Shown piece by piece: positions 16,735 through 44,433 of a stretch of 53,642 nucleotides of DNA. The DNA is from a virus (taxonomy: Duplodnaviria > Caudoviricetes). Where the stretch lies: positions 1 through 53,642 of IMG/VR virus record IMGVR_UViG_3300025098_000062. One strand, 5' to 3'. The notes beneath the pieces are model-generated. The model ran no database searches, was not told where the DNA came from, and saw only the letters and a list, made by a program, of their open reading frames with translations. The position numbers were made by a program, and so were the translations under genes. Within the stretch, counting starts at the first letter, position 1, and each line of letters starts with the position of its first letter.

Positions 16735-17184
16735 ATGGACCCAATTACTGCACTTGCTGCAGCAACCACAGCATTTAACGCAATTAAGAAAGGATTCTCT
16801 GTTGGTCGTGATGTAGAAAGTATGTCTAAAGATTTAGGCAGGTGGATGGGTGCTATACAGGATGTAAAAGATGGTCATAAGAAAAGTAAAGGTAGGTCGT
16901 TTGGCTCTGTTGAAGAAGAAGCTTTGGAAACATTTGCTGCAAAGAAAAAAGCAGAGCAGATGGAATGGGATTTACGTAATTTTGTTAATTTGTCTCATGG
17001 TCCTAATGCTTGGAATGAAGTAATAAGAATACAAGCAAGTATAAGATTAAAGAAAAAAGAAGCTATAGCAGAAGCTAAAAGAAAACAAAGACGTATGATA
17101 GAGAATACTATTATAGGTGCTTGTTGTATATTTTTTTTAGGAGCAGTAGGTGTAGTTTTATATATTGTATTTAGTCTAAGATAA
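16735..17184 (+). CDS. Hypothetical protein with C-terminal TM helix
   Basis: GAGG RBS; hydrophobic C-terminus; last gene of the plus arm. Confidence 0.6.
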   Translation: MDPITALAAATTAFNAIKKGFSVGRDVESMSKDLGRWMGAIQDVKDGHKKSKGRSFGSVEEEALETFAAKKKAEQMEWDLRNFVNLSHGPNAWNEVIRIQASIRLKKKEAIAEAKRKQRRMIENTIIGACCIFFLGAVGVVLYIVFSLR

Positions 17185-17587
17185 AGTCACACTTTTTTAA
17201 TAATGTTATTACTTTTTCTTTTCCTAATATTTTTAAAGAAGCTACAATCTTTTCCTCTAACTGTTCAGGAGTATTTATATTTTCTTTATCGCTTTTATTT
17301 CCTCGTATTCTTGACAGTAGTTCTAAAGCTTTTAACGCACTGTTCCCATTATTGTTTGCTTTAGCTACAGTATATTGAGCTTCAATCTCAGACACAACAT
17401 CTACATCCGTAGTTAATTCTTTTTCTAACTCAGCTATTCTTTCCTGTACTTCTTCGTTCTGAAGAAGACGATACCCTTGATTATAAGCAGACTCTTTAGA
17501 GTATCCAGCAGTACGTGCTGCATCAGTTGCATTTCTATTTAAGCAATATGCTTGTGCAAACTTTTCTTGTTTATCATTAAGTGACAT
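17171..17587 (-). CDS. terS: Terminase small subunit (Terminase_2-like)
   Basis: LNDKQEKFAQAY..NATDAARTAGYS..SAYNQGYRLL is the classic TerS HTH. Confidence 0.8.
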   Translation of the reverse strand: MSLNDKQEKFAQAYCLNRNATDAARTAGYSKESAYNQGYRLLQNEEVQERIAELEKELTTDVDVVSEIEAQYTVAKANNNGNSALKALELLSRIRGNKSDKENINTPEQLEEKIVASLKILGKEKVITLLKKCDFILD

Positions 17588-18450: not shown

Positions 18451-18857
18451 TATTTAAGGTTATCTCTTGCTATATTCTTAGACTTTTCAAAAGACCTCAT
18501 GGCTCCGAGTCCTAGAAGCGACATAACTAAAGTTACTAAACCTTCTACTTCTAGTTCTGGTGGTACCATCTCTGGATACCACATCATAGCACCCCATGTT
18601 AATATAGGACCGACAAAGAATTGCCAAAGTAAACCAAGACAACAGACCCACATTATTGCAGGACGAGCTCCACTAACAAATATACTAGGATGTTTAGCTT
18701 GTTCTTTATTAATATCTATTTGACCTTTTGCTAGTTCTTGTGCATGCTTCTCTGCCATAGTTGCAATAGAATGTGCTAACTTATTCTTCTGGTCTTTATC
18801 TTCTATAAATTTACCCAGCAGTTTTGTTGCTGGACCTATCAGACTTAGTAGTGCCAT
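18450..18857 (-). CDS. Holin (GTA_holin_3TM-like)
   Basis: Likely start MALLSLIGP after AGGAG; motifs IFVSGARPAIMWVC and LLGLGAMRSFEK. Confidence 0.8.
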   Translation of the reverse strand: MALLSLIGPATKLLGKFIEDKDQKNKLAHSIATMAEKHAQELAKGQIDINKEQAKHPSIFVSGARPAIMWVCCLGLLWQFFVGPILTWGAMMWYPEMVPPELEVEGLVTLVMSLLGLGAMRSFEKSKNIARDNLK

Positions 18858-19500
18858 CTTCTTCTCCTTTAATACAAGTACCAACTATTCCTTTAGTTGA
18901 TTGCCATGTTAAATAAATTTTTAAATGTTTATGTTTTTGTCTTATCTTATGACATTGATTAACCCACCATTCATTATTAAATAATGATACGTGTACGTTT
19001 CTACCTTTATGTTTTCCTTCTGGAAAAGTTTTAATTGCAGCTGCACCACAGACATTTAAGAATACTATCTTAGTTGCATGACTATATATTTTATCCATAA
19101 CCCAATCTAAATCTTGAGAAGGTACATGTTCTAATACATCTGTAGAAATAACTGCATCATACTGTTTAGTAGGTGGTTCAGCATGTTCTAGATAAGCAGG
19201 GTCATATAAAGAAAATTCTGTAATACCTAAAGTATCTTGAATAGGTTCTTTTAAATCAGGATATTTACTTCCTTTATCTGCTTTTTTAAAATCTTTAGTA
19301 TATAGTAAACCTTTACCACATCCATAATCTAAAAAACTTTTAATTTTATTTTCATCAAATATGCTTTTAATAATATAAGTTAAAGGTATTAAACTTATAC
19401 CCATAAAAGCTCGTTCATCTTTATGCATTATTTTATATGCATCTATAAGTTCTTCGTATTCTTGTGAAGGAATAACATTTGGTTCTGGGTAATTACTCAT
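18811..19500 (-). CDS. Class I SAM-dependent methyltransferase
   Basis: FLDYGCGKG, YDPA, YDAVISTDVLEHVP; likely start MSNYPEP. Confidence 0.85.
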   Translation of the reverse strand: MSNYPEPNVIPSQEYEELIDAYKIMHKDERAFMGISLIPLTYIIKSIFDENKIKSFLDYGCGKGLLYTKDFKKADKGSKYPDLKEPIQDTLGITEFSLYDPAYLEHAEPPTKQYDAVISTDVLEHVPSQDLDWVMDKIYSHATKIVFLNVCGAAAIKTFPEGKHKGRNVHVSLFNNEWWVNQCHKIRQKHKHLKIYLTWQSTKGIVGTCIKGEEDGTTKSDRSSNKTAG

Positions 19501-21829
19501 TAAATGTCCTTTCAAATGAAGGTTGTTTTGCTCTTTGTTCTTGAGATAGATTCCATAGTTCACTTATTAAAGTATCTTTACCATGAAAGTTTATACACAT
19601 CTCTAAAACATTTTCATTAAATATCTTTTCACAATCTTGTGCCATAGCTAAAAGCTCACCAGTAGTCCAAAAGTTTTTATCTTTAACAGCTACTTTAAAA
19701 TACTTAGGTCTTGGCTCTTCATCATCAGCACCAGTTGTTTCTTTTTTCATATCATCTGTAGGTTCATTCATACAAGAATCATAGCCAAACAAATCAAACT
19801 GCCTGAATCCCATAGTATGCATAATACCAATAGCTCTCATTGCTGCACAAGTACCACCTGTAATTAATGTAGAACCTTTAGGTATACCTAGTTCTTCATT
19901 AAGTGTTACTTGATTATTTACTATACCTTTCTTTTGTTCTTCTGGGTCACGTAATGATTCTGTAAATGCATGCCATCCCCATATGTCTGCTTTCTTTTCT
20001 ATTAAATAATTAGTAACAGAAGGGTCAGTCATAGATGCAACAAAGAATTTAGTTGTTGGATGTATAGTTTTAAATAGTTCTTTTCTTACTACACCATGAG
20101 TACTTGTACCAGTAATAGGTCTAGGGTCTAGTACTATACAAGCCCAAGGTTGTATACCATGCTCTAATAATTTAGGATAAGAATGTTTAACAGCTATAAT
20201 TTTTTTCTTAGGATTATTGTATATAAAATCAGATAACTTTTTATAGTCTGTAAATGGACCACCTGAAACTACAATAGCACCTTGTTGATTCATTGGATAT
20301 TTAGATAACCATTTATCTTTATCTATAAGTTTCATGTTAGCTTTAATATTATTTCTAATATAATCTTTAGGAACACAATCTCTAGGATTAACTACAATAG
20401 GTACATTTAATAATTCTTTAGGTGGTTTATCTAAATCTTTACCATGTAATATTAAATTTAAATGTGTGTGTCCTCCTCCTCTAACTCTATCTCCTGAAGG
20501 AAGAACATACTTTTTTATTTCTTTATCTATAGATTTAAATACTTCATTAGTTCCTTTAAACTTTTCTTCTACATCATTCTTATCTTTATCAGCTAAGAAG
20601 TAATGGTCCATCATTACAATAGGTATATGTTTTAAACTATCGTAATCACTCTTAGCAGTAGGTATACTATTACCACCACCTATTAAAGCAAAGTCTATAG
20701 TAGGAAGAAACTTAAATAAATTTTCTTGTTTTAAAGTTTCTCTTGAGTTACCTTTAGTTAAAACAAAAGTAAATGTTTTCTTTTTTTCTTTCATTTTATC
20801 TTTAAACTCAGTTAATCTTTTGTCTACAGCAGCCATAGTATTATGTGCTTTAACATTAAACTCTTCTAAGTCTGTCTCTGTAGTCCCATCTTCAAACAAA
20901 TCATAACCATAGTATTCTACTTTATCTGTATATTCAAAAGCAGTTAAAGCCATTTCAATAGCACGTCCTGCATTCCATGTACCAACTTCTAAAAAGTTTT
21001 TAGGTTTATAGTGACGTATTACTTCAGCTAATTGTTTATATCTATTAGGCATTATGTCAGGACTTGTTTCTTCATTAGATAAATCAAATAATCTATTACC
21101 TTCTTTATCTCTTAATGGTAATGTAGAAGGATTAATATTACCATTAAAATGTAGAATCGTATCAGTAATACTTTCTAATGTAACAGCTTTTAATCCATGT
21201 GTTAAATATATATTCATTAATCTTTCTGTAATAAATGCATCATGCCATTCTCTATATTGAAATACTTCTCCTGCTACATATGCTTTTTTTAAATCCATAA
21301 GTAAATCATATGTTGCTTGATGATTTAAATTAAAAGCCATGACAGAAGAATCAATACCTTGAGTACCATCTTCATAACTACGTAATCCTCTATATGCTAT
21401 ATGTGCATCTTCAGGTAGCATCTTATCTAAGTCAGCTTCAGTTAATCTTTTATTTACATAAGAGTCTGCATCAATCCATATTAACCAACCTTTTTTATAC
21501 ACAGCTTCTGCATGTTTAGTTAATGCAAATACTTTATGACTATTTCTTTTAGCATCTAGTTTAATATTATATGTTATTTGTCCACCTTCTGTACCATCAT
21601 GTATAGAATGCATTTCTTTAAATGTATTATACTCTTTAATATCATTAATACTTTTATAAGAAATAGAATCTTTTTTAATTAATTTATAAGAGTCTATATT
21701 ACAATCGTGATAGTAGCAGGTTAAGTTTAATGCAGGTTCAAATTGATTGTCTATAGATTTAATTAAATGATGTCCTATATTCTTATAAATAGTTTCATTA
21801 AAAGAAGTTACAAAGTTGTACTTACTCAT
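19493..21829 (-). CDS. Three-domain fusion: GT-A-like glycosyltransferase + SAM methyltransferase + DUF115/Maf-like domain
   Basis: WIDAD (DxD); FLEVGTWNAG and YYGYDLF; AIVVSGGP and GGTCAAMRAIGIMHTMGFRQFDLFGYDS. Confidence 0.7.
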   Translation of the reverse strand: MSKYNFVTSFNETIYKNIGHHLIKSIDNQFEPALNLTCYYHDCNIDSYKLIKKDSISYKSINDIKEYNTFKEMHSIHDGTEGGQITYNIKLDAKRNSHKVFALTKHAEAVYKKGWLIWIDADSYVNKRLTEADLDKMLPEDAHIAYRGLRSYEDGTQGIDSSVMAFNLNHQATYDLLMDLKKAYVAGEVFQYREWHDAFITERLMNIYLTHGLKAVTLESITDTILHFNGNINPSTLPLRDKEGNRLFDLSNEETSPDIMPNRYKQLAEVIRHYKPKNFLEVGTWNAGRAIEMALTAFEYTDKVEYYGYDLFEDGTTETDLEEFNVKAHNTMAAVDKRLTEFKDKMKEKKKTFTFVLTKGNSRETLKQENLFKFLPTIDFALIGGGNSIPTAKSDYDSLKHIPIVMMDHYFLADKDKNDVEEKFKGTNEVFKSIDKEIKKYVLPSGDRVRGGGHTHLNLILHGKDLDKPPKELLNVPIVVNPRDCVPKDYIRNNIKANMKLIDKDKWLSKYPMNQQGAIVVSGGPFTDYKKLSDFIYNNPKKKIIAVKHSYPKLLEHGIQPWACIVLDPRPITGTSTHGVVRKELFKTIHPTTKFFVASMTDPSVTNYLIEKKADIWGWHAFTESLRDPEEQKKGIVNNQVTLNEELGIPKGSTLITGGTCAAMRAIGIMHTMGFRQFDLFGYDSCMNEPTDDMKKETTGADDEEPRPKYFKVAVKDKNFWTTGELLAMAQDCEKIFNENVLEMCINFHGKDTLISELWNLSQEQRAKQPSFERTFNE

Positions 21830-22614
21830 ATTAGATAGTCCTTATCTTGTGGTAGAATGCCATTATATTTTAACCACTTAGCATCATTACACCATTCAAC
21901 AGCATATTTATTATCTTGTACTCTTGTTCCACCCCAGTCCTTAAACCAAGGTCCACCTGTAGTAAAGTGTACATTCTTAGCTTCTAATTTTTCATTTGAG
22001 TGTCCATCTAACCAGTTCCATTCTTCAGGTAGAGTTCCTATATCTGCTTCTTTATCTGGTAACCATTGAAATGTATGCAGCCATCTTCCTGTTTGAGTAT
22101 TGATAGCATCTACTGTAAGTTTTTCATTATAGTGATGTGAACAATTAAACATCATAAGACTAGACCAGTTCTTTCTTGCATAAGGTTCTTGTACTTTACC
22201 ATCCATTTTAGTTCCTTTAGGTGGTTCATACTTATGTTTAACACACCATAATGGATAATAATTATCTTGACACATGTCAAATAATTCTGTTATATCAGTT
22301 CTAATATACATATCACAGTCCATATATAAAGCTAAACCTTGATACATATTTAAATGTGGTACAAGAAATCTAGTAAAACTAAAATCAGTAGAGAAAGGTT
22401 TACCATCTATTTCATCAAAAGATTGTCCTCCTATTGAGTTAGATTTTCTAGTATATAATCCCATTCTTGAAACAACATCTTTTTTAATTGGTACAACACG
22501 TACACCTTTAGTTGCTATTCTTTCTATTGAAAACTTTAAAACTTCATAAGCTGTATGTTCTCTTGAATCATAACCAATGTATACTGTATTAGTCATTTCT
22601 TTTCTTATCCTCAT
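21826..22614 (-). CDS. GT-A fold glycosyltransferase (GT8/CDI-like)
   Basis: VYIGYD, STDFSFTRF, YMDCDM, RKNWSS, EEWNWL and HFTTGGPW. Confidence 0.85.
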   Translation of the reverse strand: MRIRKEMTNTVYIGYDSREHTAYEVLKFSIERIATKGVRVVPIKKDVVSRMGLYTRKSNSIGGQSFDEIDGKPFSTDFSFTRFLVPHLNMYQGLALYMDCDMYIRTDITELFDMCQDNYYPLWCVKHKYEPPKGTKMDGKVQEPYARKNWSSLMMFNCSHHYNEKLTVDAINTQTGRWLHTFQWLPDKEADIGTLPEEWNWLDGHSNEKLEAKNVHFTTGGPWFKDWGGTRVQDNKYAVEWCNDAKWLKYNGILPQDKDYLI

Positions 22615-29244: not shown

Positions 29245-29383
29245 CTTTCTCCTCCTTTCCACACCAGTTACAAGGTTCTCCTTCACCTATTTCCATTAAA
29301 CTATCTTCAACATTACAATAGTGTTTCCACATTTTTATTCTATCTGGATTTTCACTAGGTTCTTCTGGAATAATATATTTCAT
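29228..29383 (-). CDS. Small Zn-binding protein (51 aa, HYC...CNWC)
   Basis: Not in the track; fills the gap between the MTase and polA. Confidence 0.55.
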   Translation of the reverse strand: MKYIIPEEPSENPDRIKMWKHYCNVEDSLMEIGEGEPCNWCGKEEKDGSYS

Positions 29384-29395
29384 TTTATTTTCTCT

Positions 29396-30241
29396 TTATT
29401 TATTTATATTTTTAAGTATATGTGCAATTACATTTATTGTCCACCCATTTCCTAACATTTTATATCGTTGAGTTTTACTAACACTTGCTGTATAAAAATC
29501 AGGAACTGTTTGTGCTCGTTCACATTCTAATGGTGTAATATATCTTAATCCTTTTTTATCTGGTATTCCAAAAAATCTTTGAGAACTACAACCTTTTCCA
29601 TGTGAACCTTCTATCATCTGAACTTTCTCATTATCTTTTTGTATTCTTAATTTTTTATTTTTTCTTTTACTATGTCTATGAATCCAATCTAACATCTTAT
29701 TAGAATAATAATATTTATCATTTACATTTTTTTCTTTTATATCTTTATATAAAATATTTTTATCTTTAGGTATTTTAAAAGATATATTAGTCCAATATAA
29801 TCTTTTTCTATTTTGTGCTGATACTAAATTACTATTAACTTCTATTGGTTTAACACCTAATTCTTTAGATATAATATTTTCATATTCTTTTTTCATCTTA
29901 ACATTCTCATATAAAAACCAACTTGGTTTTAATTTATTTTTAATTTTAACATAATCAAAAAAGTATTGACTTCTTTTATCTTTAAATCCTAATTTTTTAC
30001 CTGCATTAGAAAAGCCTTGACAAGGAGAACCACCTAATAATAAATCAAAAAAAGGAAAATTTGCACTGAAATCTATATGAGAAACATCACCTAAATTAAT
30101 TGTATCAGGATAATTTAATTTAGTTACTTGAATACAAAACTTATCTATTTCGGCTGTAAAATAATTATTGTATTTTATATTAGCTTTATTAAGAGCTAAT
30201 TGTCCACAAGACATTCCATCAAACAAAGATAAGACATTCAT
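29396..30241 (-). CDS. DNA (cytosine-5)-methyltransferase
   Basis: LSLFDGMSCG, GGSPCQGFS, ENV, QNRKRLYW and LGNGW. Confidence 0.92.
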   Translation of the reverse strand: MNVLSLFDGMSCGQLALNKANIKYNNYFTAEIDKFCIQVTKLNYPDTINLGDVSHIDFSANFPFFDLLLGGSPCQGFSNAGKKLGFKDKRSQYFFDYVKIKNKLKPSWFLYENVKMKKEYENIISKELGVKPIEVNSNLVSAQNRKRLYWTNISFKIPKDKNILYKDIKEKNVNDKYYYSNKMLDWIHRHSKRKNKKLRIQKDNEKVQMIEGSHGKGCSSQRFFGIPDKKGLRYITPLECERAQTVPDFYTASVSKTQRYKMLGNGWTINVIAHILKNINK

Positions 30242-30242
30242 T

Positions 30243-31910
30243 TTAATCTCCTACATCAAATTGATTAGTATCGTCAAGCTTATTATCTTTAAGCTCTTTT
30301 AATCTACCTGTTGCTCTATCATAAAGTAAATTACCTGCTGCTCCTGTATCACCTGTATATCTATTCTTTAAGATACGAAGCATAGTTGTATTAGCTGTCA
30401 TAGAATCATGTGCTTGTTGATTACGTTCAAGAGCAATAACACAATCACTAAGATGTGCAATAGAAGCTGAACCTCTAAGATGTGACAGTGTAACTTCTCT
30501 ACCATTTTCGTGACCTGTATCACCTGTTGGTCTTCTTAGATGTGATACTAATAATAAACCTACACCTGTCTGTTCAACTAAACTTCTTAACTTAGTCATA
30601 AGAATATCAATAGACTTTCTTTCATCATCTCCCTCTTGTCCACTAACTAAAATAGATAGATGGTCTAAGATAATCCATTTACAATCTAAAGCTTTAGCCA
30701 TGTATTGTACACGATTTAGTATTTCATCATTATGTATAGAACCAAAGTGGTCAAAGGCATAGAACCTACCAGTTCCTATAGTAGCATCTTCCCACTTTTT
30801 TAATTGTTCTCTTGTATGTTGGTCTCTAATTTCTTTAATATATAATCTAGCACCTGCTTCAACAGACATAATATTAAATGCAGTTTTCTTAATGTTTTCT
30901 TCTAATGCTAAGACACCTATATTAGAATTAGTAGCAGTAAGTATATGATGCATTAGTTCTCTTGTTACTGATGACTTACCCATTCCTGCACCTGCAGTAA
31001 AAGTAACTAACTCACCTGTTCTCATACCATAAGTCTTATCATTAAGAGCTTGCCAAGGATACAAACATGTATCATTCTTTTGTTCTTCATATAAAGAACT
31101 TTGTAATGATTTAAGATTAATAATACCTGCTGGTGTATATACATCTGCATCCCACCATGCATCTAAGAACTTTTTACTTTCTCCTCTTTGTGCATATTCA
31201 TTAGCATCTTTGTAATCTAAACGCATAATCTTACACTTATTAGGTTCAAAGAGTTGAGCTACTTTAGATGCTGCTGCTTTACCTGGTTCGTCATTATCAA
31301 AACAAATTATAATTGTTTCAAACTTATTTAAGTATTCATAAGATGCTTTACAATCTCTTACTGCACCTGCTGCTCCTGTCTTAACAGAAACACAAGCCCA
31401 CTTAGCACCCATCATTTGATAAGCAGACATACAATCTATTTCACCTTCAGTGATAGTAACAAACTTACCTCTTGCTGCAAATAAGTTTTGTCCGAAGAGA
31501 CCTGCTGTAGATATAGAACCTTCAGCCCAGAACTCTTTCTCTTTAGTGTTACGTACCTTAGATGCTACATGTGAATTATTACTATCATAGTATTTATATA
31601 TATGTTGTGTAATATTATTGTCATTGTCTTTACGTACAGCAACATTAAACTTACTACAGGTTTCTTTATTTATTCTTCTATCATGTAGTGCTTCAGTATG
31701 TCCTTCTGTAAAATTAGTTTTAACTACACCTCTTATAGGTGCAGGTGTTATATTATTATTATTGTTCATTTGTTTCCTTTCTGGTGGTGTATAAGTGTTA
31801 CATGAAAAGCAGTACCAGTGTCCATCTTCATATAATGTATTTGCATCACTTGAACTACAGTTACTACATGCTCCTTGTTTAATTACTTTATCGTTCATTT
31901 TATCGTTCAT
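30243..31910 (-). CDS. Primase-helicase (T7 gp4-like)
   Basis: Zn finger CSNC..CFSC; TOPRIM EGEID and FDND; Walker A GAGMGKS; ILDHL and LRGS. Confidence 0.95.
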   Translation of the reverse strand: MNDKMNDKVIKQGACSNCSSSDANTLYEDGHWYCFSCNTYTPPERKQMNNNNNITPAPIRGVVKTNFTEGHTEALHDRRINKETCSKFNVAVRKDNDNNITQHIYKYYDSNNSHVASKVRNTKEKEFWAEGSISTAGLFGQNLFAARGKFVTITEGEIDCMSAYQMMGAKWACVSVKTGAAGAVRDCKASYEYLNKFETIIICFDNDEPGKAAASKVAQLFEPNKCKIMRLDYKDANEYAQRGESKKFLDAWWDADVYTPAGIINLKSLQSSLYEEQKNDTCLYPWQALNDKTYGMRTGELVTFTAGAGMGKSSVTRELMHHILTATNSNIGVLALEENIKKTAFNIMSVEAGARLYIKEIRDQHTREQLKKWEDATIGTGRFYAFDHFGSIHNDEILNRVQYMAKALDCKWIILDHLSILVSGQEGDDERKSIDILMTKLRSLVEQTGVGLLLVSHLRRPTGDTGHENGREVTLSHLRGSASIAHLSDCVIALERNQQAHDSMTANTTMLRILKNRYTGDTGAAGNLLYDRATGRLKELKDNKLDDTNQFDVGD

Positions 31911-37769: not shown

Positions 37770-38063
37770 CTACTCTTCGATAGCAGGGAGGTTGCTATCG
37801 GAAGCTTTTTCTGGTACATCATCACCAAACTGTATGGTAATGTTACCTTTGGTAGTTTTACTGTGCCAAGCAGTTGCCCATACTTTTCTACCAGATGCAA
37901 CTAGATTACCTTTTTCGTCACGCACTGGATTACCTTGGTCGTCATACTTGGCTAGGTTAGCGATACCCTTCTTGAATCCACCAGCCTTTATGAATCCAGG
38001 ATTCACTCCCTTGTTATACAAAGTAATTGAAGCGATTGTATTTTGAAGTTGTTTTTTATCCAT
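37770..38063 (-). CDS. First early gene, hypothetical
   Basis: Likely start MDKKQL after AGGAG. Confidence 0.6.
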   Translation of the reverse strand: MDKKQLQNTIASITLYNKGVNPGFIKAGGFKKGIANLAKYDDQGNPVRDEKGNLVASGRKVWATAWHSKTTKGNITIQFGDDVPEKASDSNLPAIEE

Positions 38064-38159
38064 TGTTCTCTCCTTGAGAATTAAGTTAATATAACAGAAA
38101 AATGTTTTCTCTTTTTCCAAAGGAAAAAAAAGGGAGAAAAGATTTAGGGATGCCATTGA

Positions 38160-38556
38160 GATAGATAGAAGCTTATCATCATATACTAATGGATAAAAAA
38201 CCTACTTTAAAATATAATCGCTTTGATTGCTTTGGATAGCATGGAGTGTATTCTGGATGAATAAAGGTATCTCTTATAGCCAGGTATGACGACTAAGGTA
38301 ATGCAGTTCATCATGGTAGGAGCAAAAACACGACTAGCTAGTTATATATATATGTGATAGTGTGACATAATTACCAAAAAAACTAAGGTATCTTTTTTAG
38401 TGGGGAGTTACATATAGTATATATAATATATATAAGTTACTCTTAGACATCTTAGCCTATAAGTACTATATTTCTTATACTACTACTACCATATTCTTAT
38501 ATATAATATATATATATATATATAATAAGAAGAAGAATCTTTCTGAAAGAAAATTC
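38160..38556. other. Non-coding divergence region: probable genome ends / terminal repeat / origin
   Basis: Longest non-coding stretch, where the two arms diverge; (TA)n tracts and repeated AAGGTA words. Confidence 0.5.
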
Positions 38557-38585
38557 TTGCAATAAATTAAAAACTACGTTATACT
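38557..38585 (+). promoter_or_regulatory. Sigma70 promoter for terL
   Basis: TTGCAA-N17-TATACT, followed by an AGGAG RBS. Confidence 0.7.
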
Positions 38586-38604
38586 GAAATCTTAGGAGTC
38601 CTCT

Positions 38605-40158
38605 ATGCAACAAAATATCCATGATGAAGTAGCTAACAATGCAGTTTTAGACTATATGGAGCTACACCAGCATTTAAGCGAGAAAGTAGAAGCAGAAGCA
38701 AAGATAGATTTTATTACATTTGTACGTTTAATGGCTCCTAAACTCATCTCAGACTGGAAGATGGGAAAGCACATTGAGGTTATCTCAGAAAAACTAAGAC
38801 AATTAGAAAGTGGAGAGATAAAACGTCTCATGGTTTTTCTTCCTCCACGTTCCTCGAAGTCTGTAATCTGTTCTAAACTCTTTCCTGCTTGGTATATTGG
38901 TAGAAATCCAGAGCATGAAATCTTAACTGTGTCCCATAGTGACCAATTATCTAGTGATTTTGGTAGAAGTGTAAGAGATTTAGTAAATGAAGAGGACTTT
39001 TCTAAGATTTTTGGGGGAGTTTCGCTGCGTTCAGACGTAAGAGCTGCAGGAAAATGGAAAACAACGCAAGGTGGTACGTATTATGCAGCAGGTGTGAGGT
39101 CACAAATAGCAGGACGTGGTGCACATATTGCAATATTAGATGATGTGATGTCTGAAGAAGACTCATATTCAGAAGCAGGACGTAAATATGTTAAAGAATG
39201 GTACCCTGCTGGACTAAGAACACGTATTATGCCTAACGGAAGTATTCTTATCATAAATACTAGGTACCATTATGATGATTTGTGTGGGTGGTTGCTTAAA
39301 CAACAAGAAGATATGTCTGAATATTCTGTTATTCCTTGGGATGTAGTACGTATTCCTGCGTGGGTAGATGATGAAGCATCAAAACTATTAGATTTACCTG
39401 TAGGTTCTTCTTATTTTCCTGAATGGAAACCAGATGATGTACTTAAAATAGATGAAGAAGAAATAAGAGCTTCTAATGGTAGTAGATATTGGGAAGCTCT
39501 CTACATGCAGAACCCAACACCAGAAGAAGGTGGTCTAATTAAAAAGAATTGGTTACAATATTGGGAATATGAGGACCCTCCTACTTGTGATTTTATGATT
39601 CAAACATATGATACTGCATTTTCTACTAGTACTACAGCTGATTACAGTGTAATACAAACTTGGGGTATCTTTTCTATGTATGACCAAGATGAATTTGGAG
39701 ATGAAGGTTACCCTGCCAACCTAATCTTACTAGGAAACATACGAGGTAGGTTTGAGTATCCTATGCTAAGACGTATGGCTCAAGAATTATACAGTAAACA
39801 CATGCCAGATATTTGTATTGTAGAAAAAAAAGCATCAGGTCAATCTCTTATTCAAGATATGAGAAGAGCAGGACTACCAGTTAAAGAATATTTACCAGAT
39901 AGAGATAAAGTATCTAGGGTGTATGCAGCTTCACCTATGATTGAATCAGGTAGAGTATGGTTACCTAAAAATAAAAGATGGGCAGATGATTTAGTAACAG
40001 AATTATTACAGTTTCCTAACTCAGCCCATGATGACCAAGTAGATGCTTTAACTATGGCTATTCACTACATGAAAGAGTCATGGCATTTAGAACATCCTGA
40101 AGACCCATACTACGAAGATGAGCCAAGAAAAAAAAGAGTTGCGTACTGGAGAGTATGA
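38605..40158 (+). CDS. terL: Terminase large subunit
   Basis: Walker A-like PPRSSKS, Walker B IAILDD, nuclease motifs YDTA and HDDQVDA. Confidence 0.95.
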   Translation: MQQNIHDEVANNAVLDYMELHQHLSEKVEAEAKIDFITFVRLMAPKLISDWKMGKHIEVISEKLRQLESGEIKRLMVFLPPRSSKSVICSKLFPAWYIGRNPEHEILTVSHSDQLSSDFGRSVRDLVNEEDFSKIFGGVSLRSDVRAAGKWKTTQGGTYYAAGVRSQIAGRGAHIAILDDVMSEEDSYSEAGRKYVKEWYPAGLRTRIMPNGSILIINTRYHYDDLCGWLLKQQEDMSEYSVIPWDVVRIPAWVDDEASKLLDLPVGSSYFPEWKPDDVLKIDEEEIRASNGSRYWEALYMQNPTPEEGGLIKKNWLQYWEYEDPPTCDFMIQTYDTAFSTSTTADYSVIQTWGIFSMYDQDEFGDEGYPANLILLGNIRGRFEYPMLRRMAQELYSKHMPDICIVEKKASGQSLIQDMRRAGLPVKEYLPDRDKVSRVYAASPMIESGRVWLPKNKRWADDLVTELLQFPNSAHDDQVDALTMAIHYMKESWHLEHPEDPYYEDEPRKKRVAYWRV

Positions 40159-40167
40159 TGCTATACT
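40139..40167 (+). promoter_or_regulatory. Sigma70 promoter for the pqqA-portal operon
   Basis: TTGCGT-N17-TATACT with an extended -10 TG. Confidence 0.65.
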
Positions 40168-40191
40168 GTAATTTAACCCAAGGAGTATCTT

Positions 40192-40275
40192 ATGAAAAAT
40201 AAATGGAAAAAGCCAGAAATAAAAGAAATTAGCGTAGGTTTAGAAATTAATTGTTATGCGTGTGCTGAAATCTAA
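40192..40275 (+). CDS. pqqA: PqqA-like PQQ precursor peptide (MKNKWKKPEIKEISVGLEINCYACAEI)
   Basis: W-x-x-P leader and G-x-E-x-x-x-Y core as in alphaproteobacterial PqqA; AGGAG RBS at 40181; TAATG overlap with the portal gene. Confidence 0.85.
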   Translation: MKNKWKKPEIKEISVGLEINCYACAEI

Positions 40276-42779
40276 TGGCAACTGAAAAAAATCCTTTTGA
40301 ACAAATGAGACCTGCAGCTGAAAATATTATTCAGTTAGGAGCTCAACAAGAACAACCACAGACAGGAGACCCAACCTTTGAGTTGGAAGATGATGGTGGT
40401 TTAACAGTTGACTTTTCTTCCACAGAAGAGAATACAGAGATGGGAGCATCAACTGAAATAGGTGAGTGGTATGGCAACTTAGCAGAAAACTTAGACCAAG
40501 ATTTATTAGAAGATATAGGTAATGATGTTTATGATAACTTTGTTGCAGATAAAGATTCTAGGTCTGAGTGGGAGTCTATGTTTGAAAGAGGTTTTGATTT
40601 ATTAGGTTTAAAAATACAAGATACAACAGAACCTTTTGAAGGAGCATGTACTGCAGTGCATCCATTATTAATTGAATCTGCAGTTAAGTTTCAATCAAAA
40701 GCATCACAAGAATTATTTCCATCTAAAGGACCAGTTAAAGCACAGATACTTGGTAAAGTAACTCCTGAAAAAGAAATACAGGCAAATAGAGTTCAAGACT
40801 TTATGAACTATCAAGTAACAGAACAGATGCCTGAATACTTTGATGAGTTTGAAAGAATGCTTTTTCATTTACCTTTATTAGGTTCAGCATTTAAAAAAAT
40901 ATATTATGATGAAACATTAAAGAGACCTGTATCTGAGTTTGTTCCTATAGACCAGTTTTATGTTTCTTACTATGCAAGTAATTTAAGTAAAGCAGAAAGA
41001 TACACACATTTAATTTATCGTAATCCAGTAGATTTAGCAAAAGAAATACGTAATGAAGTATACTTAGATTTAGATTTACCTGACCCACAAAATCCAACAC
41101 AAACTACATTAGCAGAAAAGATGGATACTATACTTGGTTTATCTCCAAGTTCAGACATTGACCCACAATATGTATTATTAGAACAACATTGTTTTTTAGA
41201 TATTAAAGATTCAGAAAGTGAAGAAGGAGAATCTTGTCCTTACATTGTAACAATAGAAGAACAATCTAGAAAAGTTTTAGGTATTAGAAGAAACTGGAAA
41301 CCTACAGATAAAACTAAAACTAAGAATTTACATTTTGTACATTATCGTTTTGTACCAGGATTTAGTTTCTATGGTTTAGGACTAATGCATTTCTTAGGTA
41401 ACATAACCATGACTGCAACTGCAGCTATGAGAAGTTTAGTTGATGCAGGACAATTCGCTAACCTTCCAGGTGGTTTTAAAGCCAAGGGTGTAAGAATGGT
41501 TGGTGACAATGAACCTATAGCTCCAGGAGAGTTTAAAGAAGTAGAAGCACTAGGTACAGATTTATCTAAAGCTATTGTGCCTTTACCTTATAAAGAACCT
41601 TCAGGAACTTTATTTCAAATGCTAGGTTTTATGACTGCAGCAGGACAGAAGTTTGCAGATAGTACAGAACAAGTAATTGCAGATGGTTCTAACTATGGAC
41701 CAGTAGGAACAACAATGGCATTACTAGAAGCTTCAAGTAAGTTTTTTACTGCAATACATAAACGATTACATAAATCACAGAAAGATGAGTTTAGAATCTT
41801 AGCTCAAATAGACCACGACTACTTACCAGAAGAATATCCTTATGATGTTCCTATGGCAGAAAGAAATATTTTTAAAGAAGACTTTAATGGTAAAGTAGAT
41901 ATTATACCTGTTAGTGACCCTAATATTCCTTCTAATGCTCACAGACTTATGTTAGCTCAAATGGCATTACAGATGGCACAACAATCTCCACCAGGAATGT
42001 TTAACTTAGAAGCATTAAATAGAACAATATTAAATGCATCTAATATTCCTAACGTAGATGAAATACTACCACCTAAAGTAGAACCACAAGAGATGGACCC
42101 AGTATCAGATATAATGGCTGCATCTAAAGGAATGCCTATTGCAGCATTTCCAGGACAAGACCATGAGTCACATATTACTATAAAGATGGCATATTTAAAT
42201 GACCCTCAAAATGGTGCCAATCCTATTATGGCAAAGATACAACCTATCTTAGCATCTAATATACAAGAACATTCTGTAATGAAATATCAAGAACAAATTA
42301 ATGGTATGACACAGCAGAAGTTACAAACTAAAGTATCTCCAGAGCAAGCACAGAATCCTGCAGTAGTACAAGGAGCAATGGCAGAAGCTGCTCAAGAAGT
42401 ATTAAATGCAAATATGGCAATGGGTAAAGTAGAATCTCCTGAACAACAAATGGTAGATTTAGAAAAACAAAAAGTATTATTAGAACAAAAGAAATTAGAA
42501 TTAAAAGCTATGCAAGATAATGCTAAAGCAGTACTAGAAGCTCAGAAGTTAGAAATGGAGCAAAGTGAAATAATGTTAAAAGTTGCTGACCAAGCACAAA
42601 CAAAACAATTTAAAGAACAAAAAGCTCAAGCTGATAGATTATCTAAACAACAAATAAAAGCTTTAGACAATTTAATGAATATGTCCATTGAAGAAAAGAA
42701 ACAAGAAACAGAACAAGATAAGATAACAAGTAAAGAAAAGATGAAAGCAGCTGAACTTGCAACTAAGCTTGCTACATAA
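40275..42779 (+). CDS. Portal protein (P22-like, long C-terminal coiled coil)
   Basis: Follows terL; motifs HPLLIES, GSAFKKIY and LVDAGQFANLPGGF. Confidence 0.88.
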   Translation: MATEKNPFEQMRPAAENIIQLGAQQEQPQTGDPTFELEDDGGLTVDFSSTEENTEMGASTEIGEWYGNLAENLDQDLLEDIGNDVYDNFVADKDSRSEWESMFERGFDLLGLKIQDTTEPFEGACTAVHPLLIESAVKFQSKASQELFPSKGPVKAQILGKVTPEKEIQANRVQDFMNYQVTEQMPEYFDEFERMLFHLPLLGSAFKKIYYDETLKRPVSEFVPIDQFYVSYYASNLSKAERYTHLIYRNPVDLAKEIRNEVYLDLDLPDPQNPTQTTLAEKMDTILGLSPSSDIDPQYVLLEQHCFLDIKDSESEEGESCPYIVTIEEQSRKVLGIRRNWKPTDKTKTKNLHFVHYRFVPGFSFYGLGLMHFLGNITMTATAAMRSLVDAGQFANLPGGFKAKGVRMVGDNEPIAPGEFKEVEALGTDLSKAIVPLPYKEPSGTLFQMLGFMTAAGQKFADSTEQVIADGSNYGPVGTTMALLEASSKFFTAIHKRLHKSQKDEFRILAQIDHDYLPEEYPYDVPMAERNIFKEDFNGKVDIIPVSDPNIPSNAHRLMLAQMALQMAQQSPPGMFNLEALNRTILNASNIPNVDEILPPKVEPQEMDPVSDIMAASKGMPIAAFPGQDHESHITIKMAYLNDPQNGANPIMAKIQPILASNIQEHSVMKYQEQINGMTQQKLQTKVSPEQAQNPAVVQGAMAEAAQEVLNANMAMGKVESPEQQMVDLEKQKVLLEQKKLELKAMQDNAKAVLEAQKLEMEQSEIMLKVADQAQTKQFKEQKAQADRLSKQQIKALDNLMNMSIEEKKQETEQDKITSKEKMKAAELATKLAT

Positions 42780-42781
42780 GA

Positions 42782-42973
42782 ATGGACATTTTTGACGAAA
42801 TTATCAAACGATATGCTGATGAGATTCAAAACTTAAAGAATACATTAGCAGATGGTAATGCAGACTCCTATGATAGTTATAAACAAATCGTAGGAACTAT
42901 TAATGGTATAGAATGGGCACGAACCCAGTTTATTGAAACTATAAAAAAACGTAATTATACAGAAGAGGATTAA
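42782..42973 (+). CDS. Hypothetical protein
   Basis: 63 aa between the portal and GroES genes. Confidence 0.6.
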   Translation: MDIFDEIIKRYADEIQNLKNTLADGNADSYDSYKQIVGTINGIEWARTQFIETIKKRNYTEED

Positions 42974-42974
42974 T

Positions 42975-43403
42975 ATGCAACAAGTACACGTAGGAAAAGC
43001 AGTAAAGAATGATGCTTGGATAACAAAGAACGAACAGGAAGACCCAGATATTTTACCTGAATTACCAGGTTATCATGTTTTAGTTAGACCTGTAAGTATA
43101 AAACAAGAGACTAAAGGTGGAATTCTATTGCCAGATTCTACTAGAGAAGATATGGCATACTTAACGACAGTAGGTAAAGTAGTTGCAATAGGTGACTTAG
43201 CTTATGCAGATGAAGAAAAATTTAATAAAGGACCTTGGTGTAAGATAGATGATTATGTATGCTATGGTAAACATACAGGTCAAAAAATAAAATATAAAGG
43301 TATTAAATATATTTTATTATATGATGACCAAATAATTATGAGAGTAGAAAGTCCTAAGACTTTAGACCCAACATTTAATTTATCTGCTGCTAGTTCAAAT
43401 TAA
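42975..43403 (+). CDS. groES: Co-chaperonin GroES (Cpn10)
   Basis: VLVRP, mobile loop ETKGGILLP, GKVVAIG and LLYDDQII. Confidence 0.88.
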   Translation: MQQVHVGKAVKNDAWITKNEQEDPDILPELPGYHVLVRPVSIKQETKGGILLPDSTREDMAYLTTVGKVVAIGDLAYADEEKFNKGPWCKIDDYVCYGKHTGQKIKYKGIKYILLYDDQIIMRVESPKTLDPTFNLSAASSN

Positions 43404-43479
43404 ATTTCTTTAACTAAAAATTATATGATATAATAAATTTAAACGTAAATACGTTTGTCTCGTAAACAACGGAGGTAAC

Positions 43480-44433
43480 ATGACAAAGGAAGAAAACTGG
43501 GAGAAAGTAGAAGCTCCTGTAAAAGAAGAAGAAGAAAAAATAGAAGTAGAAGTAGAAAAAGATGATGCTACTCCTTCTTCAGTAGAACCAAAAGCAGAAG
43601 CACCAGCAGAAAAAGAATTAGAAGGCATTGAAACTAAAGGTGCTCAAAAAAGAATAAGACAATTAATTAAACAAAGAAAAGATAAAGAAGACCAGATAAC
43701 TCAACTTGTACAACAAAACGAACAACTACAAGGTTTAGTTAAACAAAGAGAAACAGAATTTACTTCTGTTAATCAAAAGAATTTAGAAGTAACAGAAAAA
43801 CAATTAACTGATAAATTACAAATGGCTCGTACAGCATACAAGAATGCTTATGAAGCAGGTGACCAAGACAAACTTTTATCAGCTCAAGAGATGCTTAATG
43901 AAGCTCAAGTTGATTTAAAGAATGTTAATGTTACAAAAGAAAGATTTAAAAATGTGCAACAAGCACCAAGACAGCCTGTCGCATCACCACAACAACAGCA
44001 GTATCAACAACCAGCACCAGCAGGAGACCCTAAAGCACAAGACTGGGCAAGAAATAATGAATGGTTTGGTAAAGATAATGTAATGACTGCATCAGCTCTA
44101 GCAATAGATGCTGAACTAAAAGCAGAAGGTTATGAAACTGGTGATGATGAATTTTATCAGGAAGTTGACAAAAGAATTCGAGAAGCATTTCCTACAAAGT
44201 TTCAAGAAGTGCAAGAGAATAATCGGCAGCAGGTTACGTCAAGACCTGCTCAAGTAGTAGCAGGAGCATCACGTTCTACTCCTAATTCCAAGAAAGTTAG
44301 ATTATCTAAGAATGAAGTTAATATAGCTACTAAATGGAATATACCACTTGAAAAGTATGCTCAAGAGAAAATGAAAGCTGAACAAGCTGATGGTGAGTAT
44401 ACAACAATTAATACGCAACGTGGAGGTAAATAA
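43480..44433 (+). CDS. Capsid scaffolding protein
   Basis: Acidic N-terminus, long coiled coil, located upstream of the MCP gene; GGAGG RBS. Confidence 0.7.
   Translation: MTKEENWEKVEAPVKEEEEKIEVEVEKDDATPSSVEPKAEAPAEKELEGIETKGAQKRIRQLIKQRKDKEDQITQLVQQNEQLQGLVKQRETEFTSVNQKNLEVTEKQLTDKLQMARTAYKNAYEAGDQDKLLSAQEMLNEAQVDLKNVNVTKERFKNVQQAPRQPVASPQQQQYQQPAPAGDPKAQDWARNNEWFGKDNVMTASALAIDAELKAEGYETGDDEFYQEVDKRIREAFPTKFQEVQENNRQQVTSRPAQVVAGASRSTPNSKKVRLSKNEVNIATKWNIPLEKYAQEKMKAEQADGEYTTINTQRGGK

Follow-up and report, generated by a model that had tools for sequence, protein, structure and literature searches.

The IMG/VR record IMGVR_UViG_3300025098_000062 of a tailed phage (53,642 nucleotides; "the window" denotes this whole stretch of DNA) carries an open reading frame (ORF) of 27 codons at positions 40192–40275 of the plus strand, between the genes for the large terminase subunit (terL) and the portal protein. 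With a probability of roughly 0.7, it is a genuine phage-borne, stand-alone pqqA, i.e. a gene for the precursor peptide of pyrroloquinoline quinone (PQQ), which derives from PQQ-making marine Alphaproteobacteria of low guanine + cytosine (GC) content and is kept by selection as an accessory gene. Its likeliest role would be the supply of consumable precursor to the PQQ pathway of the host. A gene of host metabolic type is here flanked by phage genes on both sides in a phage-like genome.

Identity, layout and conservation of the phage pqqA

The 27-residue peptide was compared with the curated PqqA hidden Markov models (HMMs), the check proposed in the initial annotation of this DNA, and matched both above their cut-offs: Pfam PF08042 with 29.4 bits (gathering cut-off 21.1; full profile, 1–19) and NCBIfam TIGR02107 with 35.9 bits (cut-off 20; full profile, 1–21). 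A six-frame PqqA search gave a single match in the whole record (34 bits), and none of 14 control genomes matched. Peptides were considered PqqA-like at about 20–30 amino acids with a W-x-x-P leader 11 residues ahead of the glycine that precedes the core; the window peptide has W5..P8 and G16 at the same spacing as bacterial copies, followed by the E-x3-Y motif as E18-I-N-C-Y22. Its subtype can be written as W..P..-VGLEINCYACAE[IL]. The gene and its immediate signals are as follows.

40192–40275, plus strand: pqqA, 27 codons, PQQ precursor peptide MKNKWKKPEIKEISVGLEINCYACAEI, with the cross-linking residues Glu18 and Tyr22
40181–40185, plus strand: Shine–Dalgarno-like AGGAG, 6 nucleotides (nt) 5' of the pqqA ATG, as read from the sequence
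40273–40277, plus strand: TAATG, in which the pqqA stop TAA (40273–40275) overlaps the portal ATG (40275–40277)

The initial annotation was thereby confirmed with regard to the ORF, its position between terL and portal, the AGGAG and the overlapping stop and start codons. The 16 nt ahead of the portal ATG contain no Shine–Dalgarno-like motif. With AGGAG in front of pqqA and none in front of portal, translation of portal is probably coupled to that of pqqA in the window.

For a census of the subtype, a strict DNA pattern (W-x2-P-x7-G-L-E-I-N-C-Y), which fixes nine residues, was searched in IMG/VR and returned at least 117 stretches; an intact peptide of 24–27 amino acids is encoded in all 117 viral matches listed. 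From these, 91 distinct DNA variants were used to estimate the ratio of nonsynonymous to synonymous change (dN/dS) exclusively at positions free of the search pattern. The five codons after the tyrosine gave a synonymous proportion (pS) of 0.70, a nonsynonymous proportion (pN) of 0.10 and dN/dS of 0.05, while dN/dS was 0.54 at the leader positions; Glu8 and Val11 (counted from the tryptophan) are invariant with synonymous codon change. The gene is under strong purifying selection.

Bacterial counterparts and the probable host

The remaining PQQ genes were sought on the phage side without success, as the initial annotation had stated for the window. Nothing below an E value of 0.86 was obtained by tblastn of the window with bacterial PqqB–E, the four were equally missing from 42 window ORFs scanned with Pfam, and none was detected in 199 viral loci, near pqqA at any of the 117 viral matches listed or, for PqqC, in four relatives estimated to be 93–100% complete (0/4). 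A dehydrogenase gene was likewise absent from the window. The missing association with pqqBCDE does not exclude membership in PqqA, because orphan pqqA genes are known in bacteria and the same subtype heads bacterial pqqABCDE operons.

The strict pattern was also searched in one genome per prokaryote species, yielding 97 stretches, of which 97/97 encode a PqqA-like peptide; the peptides take the form MW[KT]xPxxxE[VI]AVGLEINCYACA[ED][LIV]. According to their record titles, almost all are metagenome-assembled genomes (MAGs) or single-cell genomes of marine Alphaproteobacteria, including 'Rhodospirillaceae bacterium', 'Candidatus Pelagibacterales bacterium', MarineAlpha9 and TMED entries. At least one PqqB–E homologue lies within the 8-kb locus in 59/97 cases and all four in 41/97. 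A phage-like GC content under 36% was found in 40 of the 97 loci, and among these low-GC loci 26 have at least one PqqB–E homologue and 19 have all four.

The clearest comparison is with locus L099 (single-cell genome, 'Rhodospirillaceae bacterium'), in which the peptide heads pqqA-B-C-D-E and the four enzymes score above the NCBIfam equivalog cut-offs. From the tryptophan onward, 19/23 residues of this operon PqqA are identical to the window peptide, the core VGLEINCYACAE is identical, and both peptides belong to the same length class and pass the same HMMs. They differ in a four-residue N-terminal extension (MKNK) on the phage copy and in their surroundings: pqqB, C, D and E follow the bacterial gene, whereas the phage copy stands alone between terL and portal. 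On these likenesses, the phage gene is judged to be homologous to a bona fide operon PqqA.

Five low-GC genomes (1.0–1.6 Mb) were examined for PQQ genes. PqqE was found above cut-off in 5/5, and TIGR03075, the PQQ alcohol dehydrogenase of the methanol/ethanol family, above cut-off in 4/5; a GSDH-type dehydrogenase was present in 4/5. In one genome of 1.6 Mb, pqqA was matched twice and PQQ alcohol dehydrogenase is represented by as many as four paralogues (two of them sub-threshold), and among 31 genomes of relatives of one such bacterium pqqA was above cut-off in 19. Nine low-GC loci (L084, L089, L090, L103, L104, L108, L112, L114 and L159) contain an additional, orphan pqqA outside the pqq operon; in six of them (L090, L103, L104, L108, L112 and L159) a family A DNA polymerase (polA-like) gene is close by.

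The pointer to PQQ-producing hosts given in the initial annotation was borne out, in that pqqABCDE operons of low-GC marine Alphaproteobacteria begin with a pqqA of this subtype. Going by the subtype, a low-GC marine alphaproteobacterium of the kind that bears VGLEINCY peptides is the most likely host. That these bacteria correspond to the AEGEAN-169/HIMB59 group is a guess: the 27–32.5% GC and 1.26–1.84 Mb given for that group are compatible with the peptide-bearing bacteria, and PQQ is unmentioned in the part of the source drawn on here (PMC10308909).

Distribution, genome slots and phage context

A TerL search of IMG/VR gave 388 relatives, of which the best 80 (77–100% identity) were kept. 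By profile search, pqqA was detected in 13 of these 80 loci, and the glutamate and tyrosine of E-x3-Y, whose conservation among phage homologues had been proposed as a check, are present in 13/13. Six copies lie between terL and portal, all in the closest relatives (88–100% TerL identity); the other seven lie 3' of portal, ahead of orf63 and a GroES-like gene. The terL–portal junction was visible in 72/80 loci, where it measures 30–3,500 bp and holds pqqA in 6/72; it is a general, hypervariable cargo slot in this phage family. Both slots were visible in 15 loci, with pqqA in the first slot in four, in the second in three and in neither in eight. As to other cargo, the junction (window equivalent 40159–40274) holds one to three genes encoding up to 1119 amino acids in relatives L010–L081. 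Ten cargo proteins from this slot were scanned with Pfam: nine gave no family, the tenth has a GNAT acetyltransferase domain, and none is PQQ-related.

The relatives without the gene show how sharply it is bounded. L005 and L006 (98% TerL identity) lack pqqA, and their portal ATG has its own AGGAG. One of the two belongs to a record (G038; 93% complete) that has no pqqA anywhere; 68% of the window can be aligned with this record, at roughly 90% identity, and in a collinear 9.2-kb block from terL to capsid (94–96% identity) the sole gap is 40168–40271, the pqqA cassette. A further presence/absence difference to G038 is the C5 cytosine DNA methylase gene of the window at 29360–30250 (PF00145, 1.3e-42), which has no counterpart there.

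Among the 117 matches listed, 42 copies lie between portal and the GroES-like gene, two in the terL–portal junction, 26 either at contig ends adjoining homologues of window genes or elsewhere among such homologues, and 47 in loci without a homologue of any window protein. Those 47 loci have only pqqA itself in common with the bacterial loci and include other phage types, such as a 100%-complete 55-kb record with a different portal/adaptor and another locus with a different terminase and tail protein. Taken over the whole set, pqqA occupies at least three genome slots in several phage types. A Shine–Dalgarno-like motif, loosely defined, is located upstream of pqqA in 115/117 matches listed, and the next start lies within –1 to +17 nt of the pqqA stop in 89/117.

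Two further viral PqqA subtypes were recognized in IMG/VR loci L179–L297 (e.g. L187, L195, L225; L179, L183, L185), one ending GLEINSYACAEK / ...VGLEINSYACAEK (about 14 loci, 33–38% GC) and the other of the 23-codon MWTKPSATEMRFGFEVTMYVCNK type; no PqqB–E homologue was found in the loci of either. Two single records were noted besides. L139, a 9,650-bp contig titled as an uncultured Anaerolineales MAG, belongs to the window phage family (portal 66% and capsid 75% identical) and has pqqA 3' of portal; a binning error is probable here. L308 (IMG/VR; 60,236 bp, estimated 16% complete) has a VGLEINCY-type pqqA and, in the stretch examined, no homologues of window proteins; it may be a very large phage.

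Gene callers usually apply a minimum of 90 nt. Because pqqA measures 84 nt, stop included, it may often go unannotated, and the initial annotation's phrase "widely missed" is plausible, with at least 117 IMG/VR contigs carrying the subtype. In 50,697 GenBank phage records, tblastn with the 27-residue peptide gave no match at E values up to 10, a query this short finding only close copies.

The record is of the linear class, has about 31% GC and is estimated to be 70% complete. The genes around pqqA are the following.

38605–40158, plus strand: terL, large terminase subunit, 517 amino acids (Terminase_6C 3.2e-15, Terminase_6N 8e-05)
40275–42779, plus strand: portal protein, 834 amino acids (phrog_1216, 1.1e-34)
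42782–43403, plus strand: orf63 and GroES-like co-chaperonin gene (Cpn10 1.1e-12, phrog_3188); the portal|GroES-like junction is without pqqA in the window
40139–40167, plus strand: TTGCGT-N17-TATACT, proposed in the initial annotation as a promoter (TTGCGT 40139–40144, TATACT 40162–40167); the letters are present

The GroES-like co-chaperonin gene itself (42975–43403, plus strand) is located just 5' of the head genes and is conserved in relatives. By Pfam and PHROGs, the window further encodes replication proteins (T7-type primase-helicase, DNA polymerase A, endonuclease I), a class II ribonucleotide reductase and the C5 cytosine methylase, packaging and lysis proteins (small terminase, holin, endolysin, M15 peptidase) and virion proteins (major capsid protein, SU10-type adaptors, DNA-ejection protein); integrase and tRNA genes were not seen in the window. 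This predicted gene content shows an ordinary, lytic-looking tailed phage. Its closest cultured phages are the Pelagibacter phages HTVC027P and HTVC023P and the phages 023Pt_psg01 and DSL-LC04, at TerL identities of 38.5–40.7% (HTVC027P: 40.7%), and pqqA was found in 0/4 of them at E values up to 1. To our knowledge, SAR11, the host of those four phages, does not synthesize PQQ, and absence of pqqA there would fit. Some 21 kb separate terL from the small terminase gene (17174–17587, minus strand; Terminase_2, 6.7e-18), which has the opposite orientation; that of HTVC027P is likewise on the opposite strand, about 4.7 kb 5' of terL. A block at 18814–22614 (minus strand) encodes a methyltransferase, a 778-residue protein in which an MptE-like domain was recognized, and a GT8-like glycosyltransferase; pqqA adjoins the counterpart of this block in some relatives (L294, L319, L393, L409).

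The promoter assigned to pqqA in the initial annotation was not supported. TTGCGT agrees with the –35 consensus TTGACA at 3/6 bases and sits within terL, where it encodes the TerL C-terminus. In a promoter scan of 38000–43600 the TTGCGT/TATACT site was unlisted, and the region contains 16 promoter-like sites, i.e. fewer than the 25.1 (standard deviation 5.7) in shuffled sequences. Both hexamers persist in L005 and L006, the relatives without pqqA.

Function, rival explanations and meaning

For the proposed supply of precursor, the following course is conceivable. The gene would be transcribed with the late terL–portal operon and translated from its own AGGAG, with portal coupled to it; host PqqD would bind the 27-residue peptide, PqqE would cross-link Glu18 and Tyr22, and PQQ would be completed by a host peptidase, PqqB and PqqC. 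Because each PQQ molecule uses up one PqqA, a phage copy would keep up or raise the precursor supply while host expression declines, and periplasmic PQQ-dependent alcohol and sugar dehydrogenases of the host, hence its energy supply, could be sustained through a long infection. Bacterial precedents fit the view that PqqA dosage matters and that precursor supply is the dosage-sensitive step: in the portions of the sources used here, Methylophilaceae are described with 3–12 pqqA copies and the other genes single (PMC4109929), and in a PQQ-producing strain with five pqqA genes an orphan copy is among the most expressed, peaking at the strongest rise in PQQ synthesis (PMC9851590).

RNA libraries were inspected as well. 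Contigs from three runs of two studies bridge pqqA and the portal start, spanning 40203–40390, 40174–40482 and 40187–40468. Among the contigs listed, none bridges terL into pqqA, pieces ending at 40173 and beginning at 40174–40203; because contigs break at variable sites, neither a transcript start nor a promoter can be read from the 40173/40174 break. A depth peak at 40238–40304 was rejected as a measure of expression, as it stems from contigs of other pqqA variants that match the conserved core only. Some RNA-library contigs of runs X1, X2 and X3 match just the core at 40237–40275 and then run into unrelated flanks, one of them at depth 31; these are other variants of this subtype.

Several points weigh against a stand-alone pqqA that feeds the host pathway. 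The RNA-library contigs are compatible with co-expression of pqqA and portal and are no proof of transcription, because DNA may occur in such libraries and contigs lack starts and levels. The nine pattern-fixed residues include the glutamate and tyrosine, and their conservation in the 117 copies is not independent evidence. The best bacterial match of the window peptide has 20/23 identical residues from the tryptophan onward (one copy), and at the DNA level the likeness to bacterial copies covers 23–43 nt of the core only, with which host assignment through DNA likeness failed. With the gene in a late operon, a cofactor pathway of several steps has little time to run, except where latency is long, and no experiment showing any viral PqqA processed into PQQ was found in the literature. 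Any benefit of pqqA is conditional at best, because 8/15 relatives with both slots visible are without it there. As regards timing, the initial annotation had linked the gene to energy supply during packaging; the terL–portal junction is a general cargo slot, so that the position of pqqA may reflect an insertable site rather than the time at which the peptide is needed.

The same observations bear on other explanations of the ORF. It could be a neutral passenger, a piece of host DNA without consequence for the phage, caught at a junction prone to recombination, and the hypervariability of this junction, with gaps of 30–3500 bp in 72 loci, as well as the many relatives, some of them close, that do without pqqA would agree with this; yet all 117 matches listed are intact and under strong purifying selection, the ribosome site and the closely following start are widely retained among them, and pqqA turns up in several phage types and in no fewer than three slots, which makes a passenger unlikely. 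A chance ORF in the intergenic spacer is hardly conceivable: although it has only 27 codons and a promoter of its own is unsupported, both curated HMMs pass with 0/14 control genomes matching, the sequence is conserved with synonymous change, and where the gene is absent its absence is precise and cassette-like.

Two further explanations accept the peptide as PqqA-like and assign it another task. As a decoy or inhibitor, the alternative named in the initial annotation, it would bind PqqD or PqqE unproductively and stop PQQ synthesis or divert the radical-SAM enzyme. The leader W..P...E, which is recognised by PqqD in known systems, is indeed kept, but a decoy needs the leader alone, whereas core and tail are the most constrained parts (dN/dS 0.05 in the tail vs 0.54 in the leader); moreover, the core is letter-identical to operon-encoded bacterial PqqA and some viral copies are fully identical to bacterial ones (MWKSPVVKEVAVGLEINCYACAEI), so that this option appears quite improbable. 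Finally, the peptide could be the precursor of a non-PQQ product formed via the C-Y-A-C core, or be active in its own right. The tyrosine is flanked by two cysteines, and a weak match to the StsA sactipeptide precursor was obtained (14.1 bits, far under the cut-off of 42); against this very improbable alternative, the same cysteine-containing core heads canonical bacterial pqqABCDE, with four enzymes above equivalog cut-offs, and the window yielded no maturase of whatever type. The supply of PQQ precursor is accordingly retained here as the likeliest, if still presumptive, role.

Virus-encoded PqqA is not new as such, and in this respect the initial annotation overstated the case: in the parts of these sources considered here, it is described for the Lake Baikal virus population VP_266 (Coutinho et al. 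2020, Microbiome 8:163, PMC7678222), and pqqA is among the virus-encoded genes listed in a 2026 sediment study (PMC13188868). As far as the Baikal report was consulted, VP_266 is alike in being an uncultured aquatic phage with a stand-alone PQQ precursor gene, read there as an auxiliary metabolic gene supporting PQQ-dependent dehydrogenases; it is unlike the window phage in being assigned to methylotrophic Methylophilaceae and carrying a methanol dehydrogenase gene. The window phage has the alphaproteobacterial subtype VGLEINCYACAEI, is distant kin of HTVC023P-type pelagiphages (TerL about 40%) and has no dehydrogenase gene. The orphan pqqA copies described for bacteria in the source portions cited above, and the second copies near polA in low-GC Alphaproteobacteria, resemble it in that pqqA has been multiplied independently of pqqBCDE; they are chromosomal, whereas the window pqqA is on a phage, inside a late structural operon. 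A literature search on pqqA in phages, including OM43 phages and pelagiphages, revealed no further paper and no experimental test; pqqA is unmentioned in the portions of the OM43-phage papers covered, and the single mention of PQQ in the corresponding portion of PMC9004378 concerns a medium supplement. What appears to be new is the alphaproteobacterial subtype, its abundance in a large uncultured phage family, its several slots and the apparent coupling to portal.

The principle has a familiar counterpart. With psbA, encoding D1, cyanophages supply a fast-turnover, consumed part of the host energy system and not the whole system; protein and pathway are unrelated to PqqA, and the analogy holds in principle only.

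In a broader and tentative interpretation, which we consider possible though rather doubtful, stand-alone pqqA would be a convergent gene of marine phages: phages of at least two unrelated, streamlined, PQQ-dependent lineages, namely low-GC Alphaproteobacteria (from the window subtype) and OM43/Methylophilaceae (from the literature), would each have captured their own host's version and moved it between slots, with the portal gene coupled to it in the present case. If this were true, precursor supply and not enzyme level would be the infection-sensitive bottleneck of PQQ-dependent energy metabolism, and infected cells could contribute notably to the PQQ of the surface ocean, where this shareable, vitamin-like cofactor would be freed on lysis.

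Independently of convergence, virus-borne pqqA is extended from phages of methylotrophs to a large family of uncultured marine phages whose PqqA matches that of low-GC Alphaproteobacteria. The gene may serve as a cheap host clue for uncultured phages, in that the host must make PQQ, and it draws attention to PQQ-dependent dehydrogenases as a part of the energy supply of streamlined marine bacteria that is worth protecting. It would also offer a simple, testable case of a phage that supplies a consumable substrate peptide instead of an enzyme.

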